A DNA stretch of 64,000 nucleotides from Gammaproteobacteria bacterium (GTDB lineage Bacteria > Pseudomonadota > Gammaproteobacteria > CBDBNL01 > JAAOII01). The notes under the pieces were generated by a model. That model ran no database searches. It worked only from the letters and a program-made list of their open reading frames with translations, and had not been told where the DNA came from. Shown here piece after piece: positions 15,879-26,132 of this stretch. Each line of letters opens with the position of its first letter. Within the stretch, counting starts at the first letter, position 1. The stretch is taken from assembly GCA_965209035.1 (NCBI GenBank), contig OZ242372.1:608001-672000 (forward strand), read 5' to 3'. A program made the translations under genes and the position numbers.

Positions 15879-18800
15879 CTACTGCCGTTGCTGTTGCTCT
15901 GCTACGCTGACAGGATGGCAGTTCAGAACGGGGTATTGTGTGCTGTTGCCCAGATCCCAGGCGCGGATGAAGGAGGCACCTGGCCCGTCATCGGTGGTAT
16001 CTTCCATTTCCTCGCCGGTGTTCGGATCACACCAGAAGTCACCCCAGTCGGCATAGATTCCCGTGAAGTCGGTCGGCGATTGCAAGGCTGTCGTGCTATG
16101 ACCCTCGCCCAAATTACCGGCACTCATAGACTGCATGGTGGTTTGATTGTCCCAATAGGTGGCAATGACATCGGTGTCATTATCGGTGAAGCCGATCAAT
16201 CCACCGACAGCAGCCTTATCGGAACCTGAAACAAGCCCGGGGGCGGCATAAGAATAATTAATTTGAAATCCTACCCCCTGCCCAACCAGGCCGCCAACAG
16301 AAGTACTCTCCGCGTCCCCGGAAACACTTCCGCCGAGCACATAGGCATAGCGAATATCCGTATTAATCCCACTCCCAACCAAGCCGCCAGCAACACTCCC
16401 GGAAACATCCACACCGGACACGGACGTATAGCGAATATCCTGCTCATCACCAAACCCAACCAGGCCGCCAGCAGCATTACTCCCGATAACATTTCCGCCA
16501 GACACGGACGCATAGCGAATATCCTGCTCCTCACCAAACCCAACCAGGCCGCCAACAAAACTCCCGGCAACACTTCCGCCGGACACGGACGCATTGCGAA
16601 TATCCGCATTAAGCCCCTCCCCAATCAGGCCGCCAACAAAAAAAGCCCCCGAAACATCCACACCGGACACGGACGCATTGCGAATATCCGCATACCTACC
16701 ATCCCCAACCAAGCCGCCGGCAACAAACCCGGAAACATCCACACCGGACACGAACGCATTGTAAATATCCGCATCCTCACCATACCCAACCAGGCCACCG
16801 GCAATGCTCCCGGAAACACCCTCGGAAACATTTCCGAAAACACTTCCGCCGGACACGGACGCATTGCGAATATCCGCATCCTCACCATGCCCAACCAGGC
16901 CGCCCACAGCGCTGCCCACAGCAGTGGTGGTACCGCCACTGACACGCGCATTCCCGAGATGCAGATTTTGGATGCCACCGGTTAAGGCACCAAACAACCC
17001 CACTCCATAGGCAGTATCGCTCGCAGAGATGAACAGATCGGCAATACGATAACCGCCGCCGTCAAAGATTCCGGTATAAGAGGTGCAAACATCCAAAGCG
17101 GAACAAGAGCCGATCGGCTGCCAGCCGCTGCCGGTCGTCCAGCCAGCCCGATTGCCACTGCCCGCGGCATAGGAAGCATCATCACTAAAATTGAACGAGC
17201 GAGTTAATTCATAACCCAAACAGCCGCCGTCATCGTCATCCGGATCCGGGCAGCCCATAGAGCCCACAGAGGTAATCTCGGGGATACGGCCATCATCCGT
17301 CCCATCGCCGTTCAGATCATCGCGCAGCCGCGCCAAGTCATCCAAAGTGTGGATCTCTATCAAGCCATTATTATTGTCATCCACATCCTCATCGTTATCC
17401 CGACAGCCGTCACCATCATGGTCCGCGGACGCATTGGAAGTCCAGCCGATCACACCGCGCGGACAAGTATCCGCAAGATCATCCACATCGTCATTGTCAT
17501 CGTCCAAGTCTTCTATTAAGGTGGTATTCACATCGGTCCTGCAGCCGGTAGCCAGCTCGTCCGGTTCGCCATCGCCATCCGTGTCAAGACTCGCACAGGC
17601 ATCCGTCACAAACGCATCATCCGTATCCGCCACGCCATCATTGTCATCGTCCGGATCTTCATCTCTGTCGCGACAGCCATCACCGTCATGGTCCGCGGAC
17701 GCATTGGAAGTCCAGCCGGTAGCGCCGATCGGACAAGTATCCGCAATATCCTCCACGCCATCATTGTCATCGTCATCATCACAGGCATCACCGCCGTCAT
17801 CCGCATTGTCCGTGTTGGCTTGGTCCGCATTGGCAACCAACGGACAATTATCGTCCGTATCCGCCACTTCATCATTGTCATCGTCCGAATCTTCTGTTAA
17901 GGTAGTATTCACACCGGCCGTGCAACCCGGAACAAGGCTATCCGGATTGCCATCCTCATCCGTGTCGGCACTCGCACAGGCATCTATCCGGAACGCATCG
18001 TCCGCATCCGCCACGCCATCATTGTCATCGTCCTCGTCACAGGCATCACCCTCTCCGTCGGTATCGTTGTTATGCTGTTGCGGATTGCGGACGAGCCGGC
18101 AATTGTCTAACGGGGTCACACCGTCGTCGGCAAAGTCATTCACTCCGTCATTGTCATCGTCCGGATCTTCATCTGTGTCGCGACAGCCGTCACGGTCATG
18201 GTCCGCGGACGCATTGGAAGTCCAGCCGGTAACACCGATCGGACAAGTATCGGCCGTATCCGCCACGCCATCATTGTCATCGTCCGGATCTTCTGTTAAG
18301 GTAGTATTCACACCGGTCGTGCAACCGGCAGATAATCTGTCCGGATTGCCGTCATTATCCGTGTCGGTACTCGCACAGGCATCCGTCACAAACGCATCGG
18401 CCGTATCCGCCACGTCATCATTGTCATCGTCCGGATCTTCTGTTAAGGTAGTATTCACACCGGTCGTGCAGCCGGCAGCGAGTTTGTCCGGTGCTCCGTC
18501 TCCATCCGTATCGATGCTCGCACAGGCATCTGTCCGGAACGCATCGGCCGTATCCGCCACACCGTCATTGTCATCGTCATCATCACAGGCATCACCGCCG
18601 TCATCCGCATTGTCCGTGTTGGCTTGGTCCGCATTGGCAACCAACGGACAATTATCGTTATCATCATCCTCACCGTCACCATCAATATCTGTGCCTACAC
18701 CCACTCTCGCTCCCGTTGTGATCGACACAGGATGTGAGGTCACGATAATGCCGTTCTCATAACGCACCGCAACTGTGATGTGATAAGTGATGTCATTGGT

Positions 18801-19271
18801 TAAGCCCGTAATGTTGTAGATGACCCGAACAAGCGGCGCAACATCTGCCGCGGTAGAATTAAGTTCTTCTGTTGTGCCACCATCGCTCGCATTGTCACGG
18901 CGTGTGGTAATAACGAGCCCGTCGATATTATCCGCGGCCGGATTAGTCCAACCCACGAGAATATGATCCTCACCGGCCAGAGCCCGGATATTGAAAACAG
19001 CCGGAAAATTCTGAGAAGCGGGATCGCCGACACCGCCGCTGCTGCCGCCGCTGCCGCCACAACCTGTCAGGACCAAACCGAACATACCCGCCAGCAGCAC
19101 ACCGTAAAAACGAGCCGGTATGCACATCCGTCGTGCCCTATTGGGTTCGGGAAAAGCCTTAAAGGCATTAAAAGCATTAAAAATATTAAGGAGACGCACA
19201 GATACCGTGCCTCTTTGTTCGCGGCACATTGCTTTCGCCGACCGCACAGGAAAAAAGTGGAACTGATTCAT
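15879..19271 (-). CDS. Large surface lipoprotein: FN3-like domain, thrombospondin type-3 Ca-binding repeats, GLUG repeats
   Basis: Lipobox LTGC plus Gly/Ser linker; DNCPLVANADQANTD..DDGGDACD and DxDxDG repeats; GGLVG repeats; start codon uncertain. Confidence 0.88.
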   Translation of the reverse strand: MNQFHFFPVRSAKAMCREQRGTVSVRLLNIFNAFNAFKAFPEPNRARRMCIPARFYGVLLAGMFGLVLTGCGGSGGSSGGVGDPASQNFPAVFNIRALAGEDHILVGWTNPAADNIDGLVITTRRDNASDGGTTEELNSTAADVAPLVRVIYNITGLTNDITYHITVAVRYENGIIVTSHPVSITTGARVGVGTDIDGDGEDDDNDNCPLVANADQANTDNADDGGDACDDDDDNDGVADTADAFRTDACASIDTDGDGAPDKLAAGCTTGVNTTLTEDPDDDNDDVADTADAFVTDACASTDTDNDGNPDRLSAGCTTGVNTTLTEDPDDDNDGVADTADTCPIGVTGWTSNASADHDRDGCRDTDEDPDDDNDGVNDFADDGVTPLDNCRLVRNPQQHNNDTDGEGDACDEDDDNDGVADADDAFRIDACASADTDEDGNPDSLVPGCTAGVNTTLTEDSDDDNDEVADTDDNCPLVANADQANTDNADDGGDACDDDDDNDGVEDIADTCPIGATGWTSNASADHDGDGCRDRDEDPDDDNDGVADTDDAFVTDACASLDTDGDGEPDELATGCRTDVNTTLIEDLDDDNDDVDDLADTCPRGVIGWTSNASADHDGDGCRDNDEDVDDNNNGLIEIHTLDDLARLRDDLNGDGTDDGRIPEITSVGSMGCPDPDDDDGGCLGYELTRSFNFSDDASYAAGSGNRAGWTTGSGWQPIGSCSALDVCTSYTGIFDGGGYRIADLFISASDTAYGVGLFGALTGGIQNLHLGNARVSGGTTTAVGSAVGGLVGHGEDADIRNASVSGGSVFGNVSEGVSGSIAGGLVGYGEDADIYNAFVSGVDVSGFVAGGLVGDGRYADIRNASVSGVDVSGAFFVGGLIGEGLNADIRNASVSGGSVAGSFVGGLVGFGEEQDIRYASVSGGNVIGSNAAGGLVGFGDEQDIRYTSVSGVDVSGSVAGGLVGSGINTDIRYAYVLGGSVSGDAESTSVGGLVGQGVGFQINYSYAAPGLVSGSDKAAVGGLIGFTDNDTDVIATYWDNQTTMQSMSAGNLGEGHSTTALQSPTDFTGIYADWGDFWCDPNTGEEMEDTTDDGPGASFIRAWDLGNSTQYPVLNCHPVSVAEQQQRQ

Positions 19272-19358
19272 TATTTTCTATTGTTTTCTATCATGATTAA
19301 TATTAATTTTTTTTGAGGCATTACTCAACTATTATTATAACTTTAATTTTCAAAATTA

Positions 19359-19995
19359 TGTATGATCCGCCCATTTTCGAACTTTTTTGTTTTTGTAAAA
19401 ACCGGATCGGCGAGAGTTGTTTGAGAGCATAATGGGGACGCTCGCGATGATGATACCAAGCCAACCACTCGATGAACTTGGCGTTGAATGCCGGCATATC
19501 CTTAACCAAGAGATGCCGCATATGACAACCGAACTCTTCCCCCAAGGTTATTTTTTAAGGAGCGCGATTGAATCGTTCACAGTGTGCATTCATTTGCGGT
19601 TTCCCAAAAAACAACATAGCATGAGCATGCCAGTGTCTGCTGCCGTTTGCTGTCACGACCCGATGGAAGTCTTCACAGACCAGCGCGATGCGGGGAAATA
19701 GGTCAATGCCGACGTGCCGGTAAATGCGCCGGCCACCGATGATGCTGCGGGCGATCGTTAACCGGCTGGGTGTCGGCAGCCGCCGGTTATATGTCACTGA
19801 CACCATTCGGGTAACAAGCAGATCGGTTTATCGGGACCGATGTTCGGCCGCGCTTGTCGCCAAGACCGGATCTTGGCAACCAATGCCGGTGACCAGGTGT
19901 TGGACCGCTTGGGCTGATGCTGTATAATCCCACCCATTTCCGGACTTTTTTTGTTTGTGTCCGAATTGAACCGGCAAGAGTTGTTTGTGAACATG
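19359..19995 (-). mobile_element. Degenerate IS481-family transposase pseudogene plus a second end copy
   Basis: Fragments WSPALVAKIRSWRQARPNIGPDK (HTH), VGIDLFPR, PQMNAHCERFNR, WYHHRERPHYALKQLSP with stops and frameshifts; homologous to 9296-9833; ends tgtat(g/a)atcc at 19359 and 19921. Confidence 0.85.
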
Positions 19996-20017
19996 CCGGG
20001 AATAACTTGGGGCGATG

Positions 20018-20566
20018 CTATCTCTTTAAATCCTTTGTCAATTGATCAAACGCCTTTTTAACATCCGCCAAGCTTGTTATTTTTTCCATTTCGTTTAACT
20101 TGAAATCACACTTAAATCCTCTGCCCGTTTTTGCCGTGCCTCTGTCGTGTAACTTTTCCCAATCTATGTTTTTCTTTGCCCAAAACTTGATGTACAAATC
20201 ATCCGGCGAGACACCCAAGAAAAAAATCGCAGCGTAATCGCCGTCTTTTTTAAGTCCTTCGTTTTGAAACCTATGATTAACATCCAATGAAGCGGTTTTA
20301 ATTTCAAACTTACGTTCGTTTACTTTTAGATCCCAATCCCCCTGATCTCCGTCGGCATATTCAAATTTAATGCGGCGATGATATATTTGCTGCAGACACA
20401 TCGCAAAAAATCTTTCACCAAAGCTGCCTCTCTTATCTATTGGCAAGCGTTTTATCTCTATGTATTTGTTTGTATTTTTCCATACGGACTTTTGCTTAAC
20501 CTCCCGGACGATCTCTCTTAATGTCTCATCGGCTATATCGGCAACCGGTTTATTTAATCTATCCAT
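20018..20566 (-). CDS. Putative PD-(D/E)xK restriction endonuclease
   Basis: GSFGERF...GDWDLKV...FEIKTAS catalytic pattern; overlaps the methyltransferase frame. Confidence 0.7.
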   Translation of the reverse strand: MDRLNKPVADIADETLREIVREVKQKSVWKNTNKYIEIKRLPIDKRGSFGERFFAMCLQQIYHRRIKFEYADGDQGDWDLKVNERKFEIKTASLDVNHRFQNEGLKKDGDYAAIFFLGVSPDDLYIKFWAKKNIDWEKLHDRGTAKTGRGFKCDFKLNEMEKITSLADVKKAFDQLTKDLKR

Positions 20567-21639
20567 GTTTCGCTTTTGTATCCGCCCTTAATAACAACCC
20601 CTTCTATTAAACTTCTTCGCAAATTGAGTGCCCCGTTTGTGGATGTAAATGCAATCTTATTTCAGTTGCACTCTGTCAGTATGTTTCCGATCTCTTGTTT
20701 GTTGCGGTGAATCTTAACACCATAGCCTCTTCTGTGCGGCAATTTTTCAAAATCCGTGTACGCCCGCATACCGCTAAAACAAGTGGAAGGCAAGTAAACA
20801 TCACACGCATATAGCATGTTTTTGTTGCGGGTGCTACTCGGCGTGCCTCCGTCTGATAACGAATACACCGTAATGAACCCGGAACAGGTATGTTTAATTT
20901 CTTGTTTAATATAGTGCGTATTAATCTTTGTCCATACCTGGAAGCATACGGATACGCTAACTTCTTTGCCGTTCGGATATTGAAAAGAGTTGTCCGGTAA
21001 ATTTTCCGTGTAGGCTCGTTTGTATTTTTTGATGATTCGTTTGGCCGGAACGCCCTTGCCATCGCTGTTGAACAATGGCGGCAATATGAAAGCGACCATA
21101 TCCGCAAACACCGAAGAATGATTGATAAACTGTAAAGCGAGATGTCCTCTCAAACCAAAAGGAGGATTGCCGATGACCGCATATTTCCCCGCACGCTCGG
21201 GTCTCCAGGTGAGGTAATCCCGCACCAGAATCTCATTTGCATTTTTTACTTGCGGTTCTATGTCAATGCCTATTCGCCGGTTTTTTGGCAAGACATTGTA
21301 AAAACTGCCACAGCCGGCACCGGGCTCCACAAATGTATAAGGACTTAAAGAAACCTTGAGATTTTTTGCTACCATATGAAACTTCTTATAGCAATAGGCG
21401 GCAATCTCAGCTTTCGTATAAAACTGATCCTTGTCTCTTGCCCCGCCACGGCTATCGGTTTGTTTCCCCAGGATTCGCAAAAAATCCCCTCTGTAATGAC
21501 TCGGCACCCCTGTCTGATACCAACGGGAAACAGTATTACTGTTTAATCCTAACTTCTTGGCAATAAAATTCGGATCATACTCGACAAGTATCTTATTAAA
21601 TAATTGATGTGAATTAAAACGATCTTCCATACTACTCAT
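20554..21639 (-). CDS. N6-adenine DNA methyltransferase with N-terminal HTH; in-frame TGA at 20662-20664 (possible nonsense mutation)
   Basis: IAKKLGLNSNTVSRW (HTH), DQFYT, EPGAGCGSF (motif I), IGNPPFG (motif IV); frame continues 35 codons after the TGA to TAA 20554. Confidence 0.82.
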
Positions 21640-21798
21640 TTTTACTGTGATCTTATTATAATCGCATCGTAAAAAAATACCTCAAAAGTTTCCGAAGTAC
21701 GGCACAGCCGGCGAGATTATCTTAAAGCCATTGAACGCCCGCAAGATAATACACTCGGCGATTACGAATTCATTGGAAAAAAGTTATATAATATCAAT

Positions 21799-22317
21799 AT
21801 GAGTACTGAGGTTACAACTTATAGCGGTCGTGCAGTTGCCGGGTACTTTCTGCATAAGGCCAAACAAGAAAATAAAGCACCGGACAGGCTGCAAATGATG
21901 AAGTTAGCTTATCTGGCACATGGTTGGTGCTTGGGTATTTTTAACAAACCCTTGGTCAGTGAAGAAATCGAAGCCTGGCTCTATGGCCCCACTATCCGCG
22001 TTTTGTATAATGCGGTTCAGAATACAAAAACACACACAAACACACACACAAACACACACAATGTCCCGACGAACTTGTTTGACGATGCTTATCGGGAGAC
22101 AAGTTGGTCGCAGGAGACGAAGGAGCTGCTGGACGCAGTCTGGGTGCGTTACAAAAAATATTCCGGCTTGGAACTTTCCGGCTTATGTCATGCAAAAGGG
22201 TCTCCTTGGTTTCAAGTAAACGAAAAAAAAGCGATTATTGCGAATGAAATAATCAAGGCCTATTACAAAGATCTTTGGGTCAAGATCTCCGGGCAAAGAT
22301 CTCCCGGTATGGATTGA
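21799..22317 (+). CDS. Panacea/DUF4065 (SocA-like) antitoxin, copy 1 (172 aa)
   Basis: AVAGYFL, LQMMKLAYLAHGW, PL..EEIEAWLYGP, YSGLELSGLCH..GSPW, I.NE.IK.YY. Confidence 0.9.
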   Translation: MSTEVTTYSGRAVAGYFLHKAKQENKAPDRLQMMKLAYLAHGWCLGIFNKPLVSEEIEAWLYGPTIRVLYNAVQNTKTHTNTHTNTHNVPTNLFDDAYRETSWSQETKELLDAVWVRYKKYSGLELSGLCHAKGSPWFQVNEKKAIIANEIIKAYYKDLWVKISGQRSPGMD

Positions 22318-22459
22318 TAATCAAATCGCCCACTGCAAGCGGTTTTGGCGGATATGCTGTCAGGCGGAGCCTTCTCTATTGAGATTACTTCTTGAACGCT
22401 CGCAAGATAATACACTCGGCGATTATGGATTCATTGGAAAAAAGTTATATAATATCAAT

Positions 22460-22933
22460 ATGAGTACTGAGGTTACAACTTATAGCGGTCGTGCAGTTGC
22501 CGGGTACTTTCTGCATAAGGCCAAACAAGAAAATAAAGCACTGGACAGGCTGCAAATGATGAAGTTAGTTTATCTGGCACATGGTTGGTGCTTGGGTATT
22601 TTCAACAAACCCTTAATCGACGAAGAGATCGAAGCCTGGCTCTATGGCCCCACTATCCGCGTTTTGTATTATGCGGTTCAGAATACAAAAACACACAATG
22701 TCCCGACGAACTTGTTTGACGATGCTTATCGGGAGACAAGTTGGTCGCAGGAGACGAAGGAGCTGCTGGACGCGGTCTGGGTGCGTTACAAAAAATATTC
22801 CGGCAGGGAACTTTCCGGTTTATGTCATGCAAAAGGGTCTCCTTGGTTTCAAGTAAACGAAAAAAAAGCGATTATTGCGAATGAAATAATCAAGGCCTAT
22901 TACAAAGATCTTTGGGTCAAGATCTCCGGGTAA
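22460..22933 (+). CDS. Panacea/DUF4065 antitoxin, copy 2 (157 aa)
   Basis: Same motifs; CAA>TAA removes the last 7 aa. Confidence 0.9.
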   Translation: MSTEVTTYSGRAVAGYFLHKAKQENKALDRLQMMKLVYLAHGWCLGIFNKPLIDEEIEAWLYGPTIRVLYYAVQNTKTHNVPTNLFDDAYRETSWSQETKELLDAVWVRYKKYSGRELSGLCHAKGSPWFQVNEKKAIIANEIIKAYYKDLWVKISG

Positions 22934-23097
22934 AGTTCTCCCGGTATGGATTGATAATCAAATCGCCCACTGCGAGCGGTTTTGGCGGATATGCTGTCAG
23001 GCGGAGCCTTCTCTATTGAGATTACTTCTTGAACGCTCGCAAGATAATACACTCGGCGATTATGGATTCATTGGAAAAAAAGTTATATAATATCAAT

Positions 23098-23592
23098 ATG
23101 AGTACTGAGGTTACAACTTATAGCGGTCGTGCGGTTGCCGGGTACTTTCTGCATAAGGCACAATCGGAAAATAAAGCACCGGACAGGCTGCAAATGATGA
23201 AGTTAGTTTATCTGGCACATGGTTGGTGCTTGGGTATTTTCAACAAACCCTTGGTCAGTGAAGAAATCGAAGCCTGGCTCTATGGCCCCACTATCCGCGT
23301 TTTGCATTATGCGGTTCAGAATACAAAAACACACAATGTCCCGACGAACTTGTTTGACGATTCTTATCGGGAGACAAGTTGGTCGCAGGAGACGAAGGAG
23401 CTGCTGGACGCGGTCTGGGTGCGTTACAAAAAATATTCCGGTTTGGAACTTTCCGGTTTATGTCATGCAAAAGGGTCTCCTTGGTTTCAAGTAAACGAAA
23501 AAAAAGCGATTATTGCGAATGAAATAATCAAGACCTATTACAAAGATATTTGGGTCAAGATCTCCGGGCAAAGATCTCCCGGTATGGATTGA
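23098..23592 (+). CDS. Panacea/DUF4065 antitoxin, copy 3 (164 aa)
   Basis: Same motifs. Confidence 0.9.
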   Translation: MSTEVTTYSGRAVAGYFLHKAQSENKAPDRLQMMKLVYLAHGWCLGIFNKPLVSEEIEAWLYGPTIRVLHYAVQNTKTHNVPTNLFDDSYRETSWSQETKELLDAVWVRYKKYSGLELSGLCHAKGSPWFQVNEKKAIIANEIIKTYYKDIWVKISGQRSPGMD

Positions 23593-23686
23593 TAATCAAA
23601 GAACATTCCTAATTCGCAGTTGATTCTCTTGCTGACCGCAAAATAATCATATCACCTATTCGGCATACCAATAGATAAACAGATAA

Positions 23687-24133
23687 ATGGATACAGATTC
23701 AAGTAAAAAAACGGATCTTGCGGCACTCACCAAAAACCTACCCAATAACAAGGGAGAACTAAAGCCCCCAAAAGATGAAGGCACGGATGCGGAGATTGAC
23801 TCTTATTATCAAGATCAATTAAAAAGAGACTATTCTATTCAAAAGTGGACACATAGGTTCAGACTCGTTGTTGCCGTATCGTTTCATCTCACTGTAACCG
23901 GCTTTCTTGTTTTTTATTTTTTTACCCTGGTATACTTACTGATAAAGATGGGACTTATGTTTGCGGGCCATAAAGATATTATCACCGAGGATCTTACATC
24001 CGTAGTGAGTCTTTTTATTACTCCCACACTGCCATTTATTCTTTTGGCGGCAGCCTGGATTACTTTCAGATTTAGAATAGTCGACGCACTTAAGAATACC
24101 TCCCAAAGATTCTTACCAAACAATGGCTCATGA
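23687..24133 (+). CDS. Hypothetical two-TM membrane protein, putative cognate toxin
   Basis: Charged N-terminus then two hydrophobic segments; directly downstream of the antitoxin array; AT-rich. Confidence 0.6.
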   Translation: MDTDSSKKTDLAALTKNLPNNKGELKPPKDEGTDAEIDSYYQDQLKRDYSIQKWTHRFRLVVAVSFHLTVTGFLVFYFFTLVYLLIKMGLMFAGHKDIITEDLTSVVSLFITPTLPFILLAAAWITFRFRIVDALKNTSQRFLPNNGS

Positions 24134-24437
24134 TCATTTTTCAACACCGAAAATTTGCCAACTCCCCTACTTCTTAATGGCTTCTTATATGGCTTCTTAA
24201 CGGTTTCTTAATGGTTTTCCGGTTGTCGGGTTGTTGGGTTGTTAATTGTTTCATTCCAACTTCTTTATCCGGAAAACTCGGCTCACCATCATCAAGCATC
24301 ACTAAAAAAACCTAATTCCTTTCCGGGGTTTTTCGGGCTTCTTTATAGGCTTCTTTTCGGTTTGGGCGGAGCGAGTGCGAATGCCGAACCCGTTCTCCGC
24401 CAATATTGTGCGGGTATTCTTATAATCAAAGTAAGAG

Positions 24438-26132
24438 ATGTCAATAAAAAACAAACGTTCCATTCTGGTCACCGCCGCTCTGCCCTATGCCAACGGCCCC
24501 ATTCATCTGGGACACCTTTTGGAGCATATTCAAACGGACATCTGGGTTAGATTTCAACGCCTGTGCGGTCACGATTGCCTGTTCGTATGTGCGGACGATG
24601 CGCACGGCACCGCCACGATGCTATCCGCAGAACGCGCCAACACGGACATTCTTGTCTGGATTGAGAATATCCGCCGCGAGCACGAACGGCATCTGCGCGA
24701 CTTCGGGATCAGTTACGATAATTTTTACAGCACACATTCCGAAGAAAACAAACAACTCAGCGAAATGATTTACAACAGGTTGCAGCGGAAAGGATATATC
24801 GGCAAGCGTGTCGTTCGCCAATTTTATGACGAAGAAAAAAAGATCTTTTTGGCGGACCGCTTCATCCGGGGCAGATGCCCAAAATGCGACACACCGGACC
24901 AATACGGAGACAACTGCGAGGTATGCAGCTGCACCTATGATGCCCTTTCGCTGAAAGATCCCAGATCCCGCCTGTCCGGGAGTGTGCCGAGCATTCGCGA
25001 GTCGGAGCATCTCTTTTTTGAACTGCCGCAATTCACCGATTTTCTGCAAAAATGGATGGCGGACAGCAACCTGCAAGACGAGGTGCGCAACAAACTGAAG
25101 GAATGGTTCGCCACCGGCCTGCTGGAATGGGATATCAGTCGGGATGCCCCCTACTTTGGTTTTGAAATTCCCGGCCATCCGGACAAGTATTTTTATGTTT
25201 GGCTGGATGCGCCGATCGGCTATATGGCGAGTTTGGCAAACCTGTATCAAAAACAAGGCAAAGCATCTAATCAGCCATTTGAACTATCTGAACTCTTTGA
25301 GATCTTTAAGGACGAATGGGAGAAACGGGAAGTGTTTCATTTTATTGGCAAGGACATTATGTATTTCCACTGTCTCTTTTGGCCGGCCCTACTGAAAGGA
25401 TCCGGTTTTTCCCAGCCAAGCGGCGTATTCGCTCACGGATTCCTAACCGTCAACGGCGAAAAAATGTCAAAATCGCGCGGCACCTTTATTGCCGCCGGCG
25501 ACTATCTTACACATCTGGATCCGGAGTATATAAGATACTACTTTGCCACCAAGTTGTCGAGCGGCCTGGAAGATATGGATTTCAACACCAAAGAGTTTGG
25601 CGAGCGGGTGAACAGCGACCTGGTCGGCAAGTTGGTGAACATCGCCAGTCGCAGTGCGCGCTTCGTCAACAACAATTTTGACAACCGATTGGCGCGGGAA
25701 ACGACCGAAACCGAAAAGCAACTCTTGTGCCAACTGGCCGACGAGGGAGACGAAATAGCCAAGTTTTATGAGGGACGCCATTTTGCCAAGGCGGTCCGTC
25801 GCATTCTGGAGCATGCGGATTCGGTGAATCGTTATCTGGACCGCACCAAGCCATGGGACCTTGCCCGTGCAAACCCGACAGACGAGCGGGTTCAACAGAT
25901 CGCCACAACCGGTCTCCTTGCCTACCGCACGCTGGCGATTTACCTCAAGCCGATCCTGCCGGGCCTGGCGAGTCGTTCGGAGCAGTTGTTTTTGGAAACA
26001 GATTGGCAGTGGGATGACCGCCGCATCACACCGCCGAGCGGACGCATCGCTCCGTTCACCGCCCTGCTGCAACGAGTCAAAGCCGAAGACACGGCAAAAT
26101 TGACACAAACCCAAATTGGGTCGGAAAAATGA
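24438..26132 (+). CDS. metG: Methionine--tRNA ligase (short form)
   Basis: ALPYANGPIHLGH, CPKC..CEVC, WDISRDAPYFG, KMSKS. Confidence 0.98.
   Translation: MSIKNKRSILVTAALPYANGPIHLGHLLEHIQTDIWVRFQRLCGHDCLFVCADDAHGTATMLSAERANTDILVWIENIRREHERHLRDFGISYDNFYSTHSEENKQLSEMIYNRLQRKGYIGKRVVRQFYDEEKKIFLADRFIRGRCPKCDTPDQYGDNCEVCSCTYDALSLKDPRSRLSGSVPSIRESEHLFFELPQFTDFLQKWMADSNLQDEVRNKLKEWFATGLLEWDISRDAPYFGFEIPGHPDKYFYVWLDAPIGYMASLANLYQKQGKASNQPFELSELFEIFKDEWEKREVFHFIGKDIMYFHCLFWPALLKGSGFSQPSGVFAHGFLTVNGEKMSKSRGTFIAAGDYLTHLDPEYIRYYFATKLSSGLEDMDFNTKEFGERVNSDLVGKLVNIASRSARFVNNNFDNRLARETTETEKQLLCQLADEGDEIAKFYEGRHFAKAVRRILEHADSVNRYLDRTKPWDLARANPTDERVQQIATTGLLAYRTLAIYLKPILPGLASRSEQLFLETDWQWDDRRITPPSGRIAPFTALLQRVKAEDTAKLTQTQIGSEK

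Follow-up and report, generated by a model that had tools for sequence, protein, structure and literature searches.

The 64,000-nucleotide stretch of genomic DNA from a gammaproteobacterium that is analysed here, hereafter the window (GenBank assembly GCA_965209035.1, contig OZ242372.1, positions 608,001–672,000 of the forward strand), contains at positions 21731–24133 a tandem array of three Panacea-type antitoxin genes (PanA) followed by a single gene encoding a putative membrane toxin. The array is best explained as a PanA–PanT toxin–antitoxin locus with redundant tandem copies of the antitoxin gene, which were probably made by duplication and homogenized by gene conversion; we give this reading a probability of roughly 0.6. 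An initial annotation, made from the sequence alone, had proposed that the array is a diversifying, accordion-like antitoxin repertoire. Neither a novel mechanism nor adaptive diversification is evidenced by the results.

Head-to-tail units of 661, 637, and approximately 594 base pairs form the array at positions 21731–23622 and are 93–97% identical over 300-nucleotide blocks. The units were delimited by direct-repeat analysis, alignment, and self-BLAST, and their starts are spaced 661 and 637/638 base pairs from each other. Compared with itself by BLAST, the array is 94.7% identical across 1,234 nucleotides. Unit 1 (21731–22391, + strand, as are all features of the array) consists of a leader, PanA copy 1, and an inter-copy spacer; unit 2 occupies positions 22392–23028, and unit 3 positions 23029–23622. 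The triplication recognized in the initial annotation is confirmed, and the unit length of 640–660 base pairs assigned to it is correct for the first two units but not for the third, which is partial. The similarity of unit 3 to the others stops approximately 30 nucleotides past the stop codon of copy 3. A 64-nucleotide spacer is present at both inter-copy junctions only (22328–22391 and 22965–23028), and these are the only two places in the genome that it matches. Alignments of the spacer to the flanks or to the toxin gene do not score above those of shuffled sequences (15/300 and 93/300 shuffles reach the score).

The proteins encoded by copy 1 (21799–22317), copy 2 (22460–22933), and copy 3 (23098–23592) are 172, 157, and 164 residues long. 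A search with profile hidden Markov models confirms that they are Panacea proteins: all three match PF13274 (SocA_Panacea) with 64–70 bits, compared with the Pfam gathering score of 25.7, at E values of 4e-19 to 3e-17 (copy 1, 4.2e-19 and 70 bits; copy 2, 8.6e-19; copy 3, 3.2e-17). The phage protein family phrog_1281 is also matched by each copy (copy 1, 5.1e-32). The AlphaFold2 (AF2) model of copy 3 has a predicted local distance difference test score (pLDDT) of 91.4 and a predicted template modelling score (pTM) of 0.88. The three copies retain all 11 alignment columns in which 21 PanA sequences from the bacterial family do not vary. A Foldseek comparison of the PanA model with the PDB yielded nothing at E values up to 0.001 (best 0.27), a PDB sequence search with the PanA and toxin profiles returned chance-level matches only, and a word-indexed search with copy 3 retrieved, from 34 candidates, its own cluster only. 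In PADLOC-DB 2.0, no defence family matches the PanA copies or the toxin; the only matches are to the neighbouring methyltransferase and endonuclease.

The three copies differ at 12 residue positions, which are those listed in the initial annotation, and at eight codons with synonymous differences. Most of the residue changes are conservative (V/I, A/S, A/T, L/I, K/Q). The eight additional residues of copy 1 are encoded by a 24-nucleotide insert, which corresponds to two extra 12-nucleotide units of a (ACACACAAAC)-type microsatellite; Tandem Repeats Finder detects the repeat with its 12-nucleotide period at positions 22024–22061 (+ strand, 3.1 copies, 96%). In the AF2 model, the insert maps to a loop formed by residues 75–86. 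Copy 2 begins at the shared ATG and ends seven codons early at a CAA to TAA stop. It lacks residues 158–164, where the last helix ends and is followed by a tail (residues 159–164) that is disordered in the model, with pLDDT under 50. The protein P0011, a PanA of a close relative, has the same length of 157 residues. The insertion and the truncation are thus present as first described, but they do not appear to be functional adaptations: the former results from microsatellite slippage in a loop, and the latter removes a disordered tail.

The only partner gene downstream of the array begins 94 nucleotides past copy 3 (23687–24133, + strand). It encodes a 148-residue putative membrane toxin, designated PanT-like because of its position, its hydropathy, and the occurrence of its paralogs behind other PanA genes. 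Hydropathy windows of at least 1.6 begin at residues 58–76 and 102–117, which yields two hydrophobic segments and agrees with the initial description of a single downstream partner with two transmembrane (TM) segments. The protein can be read as a candidate PanT-type membrane toxin. Residues 1–56 include nine lysines and arginines and 11 aspartates and glutamates. The fold model has low confidence (pLDDT 58.9, pTM 0.28) and contains a disordered region of residues 1–34 followed by two long helices. The protein therefore has the features of a membrane-type PanT, namely a charged, disordered N-terminal region that precedes predicted TM helices. No family in Pfam, NCBIfam, PADLOC, or PHROG matches it, and in the ESM Atlas it falls into unnamed clusters only. 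A search with the single protein returned 0/40 relatives; a profile later recovered the toxin in the genomes G002 and G003, which belong to two species of a sister genus, so that the blank result was a matter of sensitivity. The profile of the family finds seven proteins among 5.77 billion and six among 1.84 billion cluster representatives. Four of the seven are encoded in this genome, and three on metagenome contigs of one or more close relatives. All four members in this genome are positioned directly behind Panacea genes, which they overlap by 11 or 32 nucleotides or follow at a distance of 15 or 94 nucleotides.

PanA–PanT pairs with membrane-depolarising toxins have been validated from Escherichia coli STEC O31, Bartonella apis, and Helicobacter sp. 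(PMC8832971, main text), and a Blautia-type PanT_D11:PanA pair has been described (PMC10440598, main text). The locus resembles these systems in that a stand-alone Panacea gene of about 160 codons is located less than 100 nucleotides upstream of a gene for a small protein with a charged N-terminus and C-terminal TM helices, and in that this arrangement is shared by more than one species; direct binding is predicted weakly. It differs from them in having three antitoxin genes per toxin gene. The toxin family also lacks detectable relatives outside this bacterial family in profile searches, a comparison of which the validated PanTs were not part. Following the delimitation of PanA–PanT loci in the main text of PMC8832971, the gap between the two genes is 94 nucleotides and the pairing recurs in a contig of the close relative, in G002, and in G003; the limit of three genes given there is exceeded by one, solely through the triplication of the antitoxin. 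A predicted complex of PanA copy 3 and the 148-residue protein has a median score of 0.56 (runs 0.60, 0.12, and 0.56), compared with 0.00 for the best of three controls; the runs agree in at least 45% of contacts, and the partner has a pLDDT of at least 60. In the calibration of the method, 58 of 80 solved complexes and two of 110 mismatched pairs reach the mark. Only seven of the 80 solved complexes, together with both passing mismatches, reach it with scores of 0.60 or less, and, because our own alignments were used for the prediction, the counts hold only roughly. The prediction thus lends weak support to the pairing of PanA with the toxin.

At three further loci in the genome, a paralog of the toxin gene likewise comes after duplicated Panacea genes. 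They are located on contig C1 at positions 1135629–1137279 (locus B, +), 1636362–1638250 (locus C, −), and 1141696–1143935 (locus D, +), and the array in the window is referred to as locus A. The three paralogs are 16–36% identical to the 148-residue protein in the alignment, and two of them are detected by tblastn with E values of 3e-12 and 4e-11. PanA is thus duplicated at all four loci of the toxin family. The identity of PanA within a locus is 94–96% for the three copies at A, 92% for the two at B, 96% for the two at C, and 75% for the two at D, whereas PanA proteins from different loci are 28–55% identical, and the tree groups the copies by locus. The breakpoints of the repeats differ at each locus: the repeat unit of locus B ends 22 nucleotides before the stop codon of the first copy, that of locus C includes part of the upstream neighbour and approximately 24 nucleotides of the toxin gene, and that of locus D carries the first 196 nucleotides of the toxin gene. 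At locus D, the first antitoxin, D1, is cut to 101 residues and is followed by this remnant of the 5′ 196 nucleotides of the toxin gene, while the second antitoxin, D2, and its toxin are intact. Another four Panacea genes of the genome are single (C1 1573942–1574848, −; 1490229–1490904, +; 1393841–1394661, +; 274049–274880, −). Each is followed by a different small partner with a charged N-terminus and two TM segments. Among these partners are two intact ones, a truncated one, and one that is broken up into open reading frames (ORFs) of 62 and 57 codons. The single Panacea locus at 1393841–1394661 is preceded by a gene for a 171-residue protein in which an HExxH motif was identified by eye.

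The genome (G000; 2.24 Mb in two contigs) has 13 Panacea matches, the most among 301 sampled genomes of the class; Panacea matches are present in 36 of the 301, mostly one or two in each. Tandem duplication is not restricted to the Panacea loci. A strict filter, which misses loci A and D, identifies 22 gene-sized tandem-duplication loci that constitute 2.8% of the genome, and there are 406 pairs of local direct repeats of at least 250 nucleotides within 4 kb genome-wide. The survey includes an amplification of recN/radC (134130–135774) and a tandem pair of insertion sequences (679327–681939).

Proteins of a close relative provide evidence on the age of the duplicates and on exchange between them. 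The toxins of loci A, B, and C have orthologs in the relative with 80.4, 81.9, and 88.4% identity (P0005–P0007), and are thus less conserved (80–88%) than the Panacea orthologs (90–98%); at locus A, the changes in the toxin are concentrated in its N-terminal region. The ortholog of B1 is P0016 (96.3% identity, clade support 98/98) and that of B2 is P0015 (92.6%); the two pairs differ in their C-terminal tails, which are conserved within each pair. For D2, the ortholog is P0018 (97.7%, 97/97), and P0020, the counterpart of D1, is full-length. Since the B and D proteins of the relative pair as orthologs, the duplicates at these loci are older than the split of the species. The tree, in which copies cluster by locus with 93–99% support, does not resolve the clade of locus A. 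Two PanA copies of the relative share a contig with the toxin ortholog, and the locus-A copies of the relative have the same two-state sites as copies 1–3 in other combinations. In one, N-terminal states as in copy 3 are joined to a middle part as in copy 2; in the other, the N-terminal states and the early stop match copy 2, and the middle and C-terminal states match copy 3. Two sites of locus A are fixed differently in each genome. In a four-gamete test, applied to the protein sequences only, 31 of 45 pairs of ten informative sites fail, which corresponds to a minimum of five exchanges. This reshuffling indicates gene conversion or unequal exchange among the tandem paralogs. The three-way mosaic within this genome was also considered as evidence of recombination and was rejected, because with three sequences only, every variable site is a singleton and the mosaic is uninformative.

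The ratios of non-synonymous to synonymous substitution rates (dN/dS, Nei–Gojobori) for the three pairs of copies at locus A are 0.35, 0.33, and 0.49, based on small counts of 8–13 non-synonymous and 6–7 synonymous differences per pair. At loci B, C, and D they are 0.86, 0.31, and 0.58. The dS values are 0.05–0.07 at loci A–C and 0.20 at locus D. There is no excess of replacements among the copies at loci A–D, within the limits of these small counts, and the values of 0.33–0.49 at locus A reflect purifying or relaxed selection, not positive selection.

These results bear on the possibility that the copies are kept as a diversifying repertoire against differing toxin variants, foreign toxins, or phage triggers, with the membrane protein as their common abortive-infection effector, and that recombination yields new combinations of them. 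It would be in line with the recurrence of the same bi-allelic sites in recombined form in two organisms, which shows that the variation has been retained and not swept away, with the faster divergence of the toxin orthologs than of the PanA orthologs, and with the position of the array in a low-GC island beside a restriction–modification pair. In addition, a sensory role for Panacea is favoured in the main text of PMC10440598. However, the copies are not diversifying according to dN/dS, their 12 variable residues are mostly exchanged conservatively, and their insertions and deletions are confined to disordered or loop regions. Some copies in the lineage are plainly decaying, no PADLOC model matches either protein, the shuffling relative to the copies of the other organism is what gene conversion produces without selection for a mosaic, and the tandem duplication that occurs genome-wide is a simpler cause of the array. 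We therefore consider such a repertoire distinctly unlikely.

Duplication of complete modules followed by loss of toxin genes can be traced in sister genera of the bacterial family. In four of five genomes of the family, Panacea genes occur within approximately 1.2 kb of each other on one strand. G001 has three complete modules of PanA and a small TM protein in tandem (L017 1377–4334, −). The arrangement is PanA1–toxin–PanA2 in G002 (L016 1473–3048) and PanA1–toxin remnant–PanA2–toxin in G003 (L015 2721–4411). The remnant in G003 comprises the last 104 nucleotides, from the 3′ end of the toxin gene, and is 86.5% identical to the intact copy. The loci of the two species occupy one chromosomal site and share the gene that follows downstream, and PanA1 and PanA2 have been kept as distinct orthologs in both (clade support 100/99). 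The layouts therefore imply an ancestor with two complete modules, from which each species lost a different copy of the toxin gene. Beyond the family, tandem Panacea arrays occur in one of the 35 other Panacea-bearing genomes of the class sample, G066, and no member of the 148-residue family adjoins them. G066 belongs to another family; its loci (L012, L013, and L014) include a pair of Panacea genes 655 base pairs apart and three genes of about 205 codons, two of which are separated by a 139-codon ORF. In phages, each of 38 records that match this PanA holds a single match (38/38).

The favoured mechanism, formulated by analogy with the validated systems, is as follows. The toxin would be a small membrane protein, confined to this lineage, that has two TM helices and a charged N-terminus on the cytoplasmic side and may depolarise the membrane as toxins of the PanT type do. 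Panacea proteins are expected to neutralise it by direct binding. In the described pair, the stand-alone Panacea contacts the N-terminal region of the toxin and the helix that precedes its TM part (PMC10440598, main text), and all three PanA proteins would bind the same toxin in the corresponding place, namely at its N-terminal region and at the helix just ahead of the first TM segment. The copies probably arise by tandem duplication and unequal exchange, and the accordion origin proposed in the initial annotation finds support in this form. The lineage would repeatedly duplicate PanA–toxin modules, delete the spare toxins, and keep the antitoxins, while gene conversion would hold the copies at 94–96% identity and reshuffle their few differences. 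The practical effect may be a larger and more robust supply of antitoxin, with no separate specificities. The copies differ too little and too conservatively for different partners to be expected, and most likely all three bind the same toxin.

Several observations weigh against this explanation. The putative toxin matches no described family and its fold model is poor (pLDDT 58.9). Support from the predicted complex is weak, and one of the three complex runs scored only 0.12. The toxicity of the protein and its neutralisation are inferred, as are the site of binding, an effect on dosage, and the way in which this particular array formed. No toxin remnant was found between the copies of the array, and the junction spacer is not traceable; duplication followed by toxin loss is seen in the relatives and at locus D, not at locus A, for which a duplication of PanA only fits equally well. 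The relative is represented by protein sequences, and two of these, P0015 and P0026, are encoded on contigs other than that of the toxin. At locus B, dN/dS (0.86) approaches the neutral value, and decay is evident in some copies, such as D1, which is cut to 101 residues here, and P0010 of the relative, which is frameshifted. Lastly, duplication of all four loci, compared with a genome background of about 3%, and the persistence of the two-copy layout across species and genera hint at selection for extra PanA copies, which pure redundancy does not explain.

The decaying copies raise the question of whether the extra genes have any function. They could be recent, functionless by-products of a duplication-prone genome, which decay and are kept alike by conversion from the functional copy. 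The frequency of tandem duplications genome-wide, the truncated or frameshifted copies (the early stop of copy 2, D1, and P0010), and dN/dS values of up to 0.86 at locus B are compatible with such leftovers. They are at odds with the state of the array itself, in which all three copies are intact over the folded domain and keep every invariant residue and in which dN/dS points to constraint; the duplicates of loci B and D have persisted since before two species diverged, and the proportion of duplicated loci (4/4) exceeds the background of about 3%. On balance, functionless copies are unlikely.

The regular presence of more than one PanA gene could instead reflect a toxin that requires two non-identical PanA proteins, either in a hetero-oligomeric clamp or as a neutraliser and a regulator or sensor, so that PanA–PanA–toxin would be the ancestral layout and the third copy at locus A a recent extra. 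At least two PanA genes precede the toxin at all four loci here and also in G003, the copy-specific C-terminal tails of locus B are conserved in the relative (B1/P0016 and B2/P0015), and the distinct PanA1 and PanA2 orthologs of G002 and G003 (100/99) would be expected of such a pair. This requirement is improbable, because the pairs in G002 and G003 descend from two complete modules, each with its own toxin, and G001 retains one toxin per PanA. Moreover, D1 is truncated here while D2 and its toxin are intact, at four other loci of the genome a lone PanA gene is accompanied by a small two-TM partner, either whole or as a remnant, and the repeat breakpoints vary by locus.

It is doubtful, although conceivable, that the series of layouts reflects a rule that has not been described, by which the modules of this gammaproteobacterial family are amplified in tandem, spare toxins are deleted, reciprocally in sister species, and the antitoxins are retained under selection while they exchange segments. 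If this were true, a small group of Panacea proteins that recombine with each other would stand guard over each toxin, and the surplus, slightly different PanA would itself be the selected product. The surplus could serve as insurance in case any single antitoxin is lost or inhibited, for instance when it is attacked by a phage or a protease. Alternatively, the copies could be combinatorial trigger sensors for an abortive-infection membrane effector.

That the array is an artefact, in which strain haplotypes of a single-copy gene were strung in tandem during assembly, is very unlikely, to the point of being negligible. The array was checked against Logan contigs from three runs, the only ones that contain it; all are from one sample, which is probably the source of the assembly and thus not an independent one. 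Contig pieces cover the head-to-tail junctions: positions 22296–22458 in run X3 with no differences, and positions 22933–23067 in runs X1 and X2 with one difference each. The depths of array pieces in the three runs reach 52.4, 33.8, and 54.1, compared with 30–36, 14–16, and 17–26 in the flanks. No Logan contig piece spans the whole array. The tandem arrangement proposed at the outset is thus supported by junctions and raised depth, while the exact count of three copies rests on the assembly. Further arguments against misassembly are that the genome is contained in two contigs, that three other loci have the same layout with unrelated sequence, that a contig of the relative holds at least two copies and the toxin ortholog, and that sister genera have tandem PanA genes in single-contig chromosomes. 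Run X4, from another sample with the same species label, has 51 reads on the region, which is too thin for an estimate of copy number. Four of its reads leave the window sequence at position 21715 into sequence resembling a transposase-like fragment, which suggests that this sample has a different left flank.

Panacea antitoxins pair with many unrelated toxins and, to our knowledge, are always described as one antitoxin with one toxin. Other arrangements that resemble the array differ from it in various ways. SocB of the type VI SocA–SocB system of Caulobacter is an inhibitor of the replication clamp that is handed to a protease by SocA. The PanA copies share the Pfam domain SocA_Panacea with that antitoxin; however, they score 75, 72, and 66.8 bits against the SocA equivalog NF047745 of NCBIfam, below its cut-off of 190, and their partner is a membrane protein. 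Phage T4 reportedly amplifies its ToxN inhibitor gene in an accordion-like manner. The array is similar in its head-to-tail copies of a toxin-counteracting gene, in the recombination between repeats, and in a copy number that is open to change. By contrast, the copies at locus A have diverged by 3–6%, are shared with a related organism, and are chromosomal beside their own toxin. Orphan antitoxins and anti-addiction modules remain after the loss of toxins, and SpoIISABC combines one membrane toxin with two antitoxins. Here, too, antitoxin genes outnumber toxin genes, and reciprocal toxin loss is seen in G002 and G003; unlike orphan antitoxins, the orphan copy here stays beside a toxin-linked copy to which it is nearly identical. 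No description of tandem PanA arrays was found in the literature searched on duplicated antitoxins and on Panacea (DUF4065), and the main texts of PMC8832971 and PMC10440598, the supplements of which may list loci with multiple PanA genes, do not use the words tandem or duplication.

The layouts in this lineage form a natural series: three complete tandem modules, a toxin flanked by two antitoxins, a toxin stump enclosed by two antitoxins, and a triplet of antitoxins beside a single toxin. Tandem duplication, gene loss that preferentially affects the toxin, and gene conversion among the antitoxins that survive are all documented in it, and it provides a concrete way in which orphan or surplus antitoxins can arise. 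A further addition is a new and very narrow family of candidate membrane toxins, which is represented by four paralogous loci in this 2.2-Mb genome.

A TATAAT hexamer is positioned 6 nucleotides upstream of the PanA ATG in all three units, as had been noted initially. A sigma-70 consensus scan called no + strand promoter at these sites, and its six promoter-like sites compare with 6.0 expected from shuffles. The −10-like hexamer ends 6–8 nucleotides before the PanA ATG here (21780–21798 and the repeats thereof) and in G002 and G003, where a TTGAAA-like hexamer is located 17 nucleotides upstream of it. By eye, the upstream regions of PanA in the window and in L015 and L016 contain no Shine–Dalgarno-like sequence, and leaderless PanA transcripts are possible from these sequence features. 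Just upstream of the TATAAT, copy 3 has one extra A in an A-run (A7 instead of A6; 23070–23100 compared with 22433–22462), which shifts the spacing of any promoter by one base. The extra A also places an upstream ATG in frame, which gives the 176-residue database form P0009. On the + strand of region 21500–24500, a consensus scan for terminators, which works by pattern matching only, called a hairpin with a T-run 3′ of the toxin gene (24322–24337) and one weak motif of five pairs that recurs inside each PanA coding region. It called none in the inter-copy spacers.

The array is part of a 4.6-kb low-GC stretch, in which the GC content is 0.39–0.45 over positions 19800–24400, compared with 0.52–0.59 in the flanks. 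The stretch also holds a gene for a type II DNA methyltransferase (20662–21639, − strand; PADLOC MTase_II PDLC03280, E 5.8e-39) and, as a weak candidate, its possible restriction endonuclease partner (20018–20566, − strand; PADLOC REase_II, E 0.002; phrog_6927, 7.3e-06). It is bounded by a transposase-like remnant and a methionyl-tRNA synthetase gene. Transposase-like ORF fragments, identified as such by eye, are located beside locus A (window 19321–19806) and beside loci B and D (C1 near 1133753 and 1141033). The product of a 1,130-codon ORF at window positions 15879–19271 (− strand) contains numerous Asp-rich repeats, has a C-terminal half that is repetitive and rich in Gly and Ser, and looks like a large surface protein. 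A similar protein is encoded beside locus B (C1 1138005–1139462).

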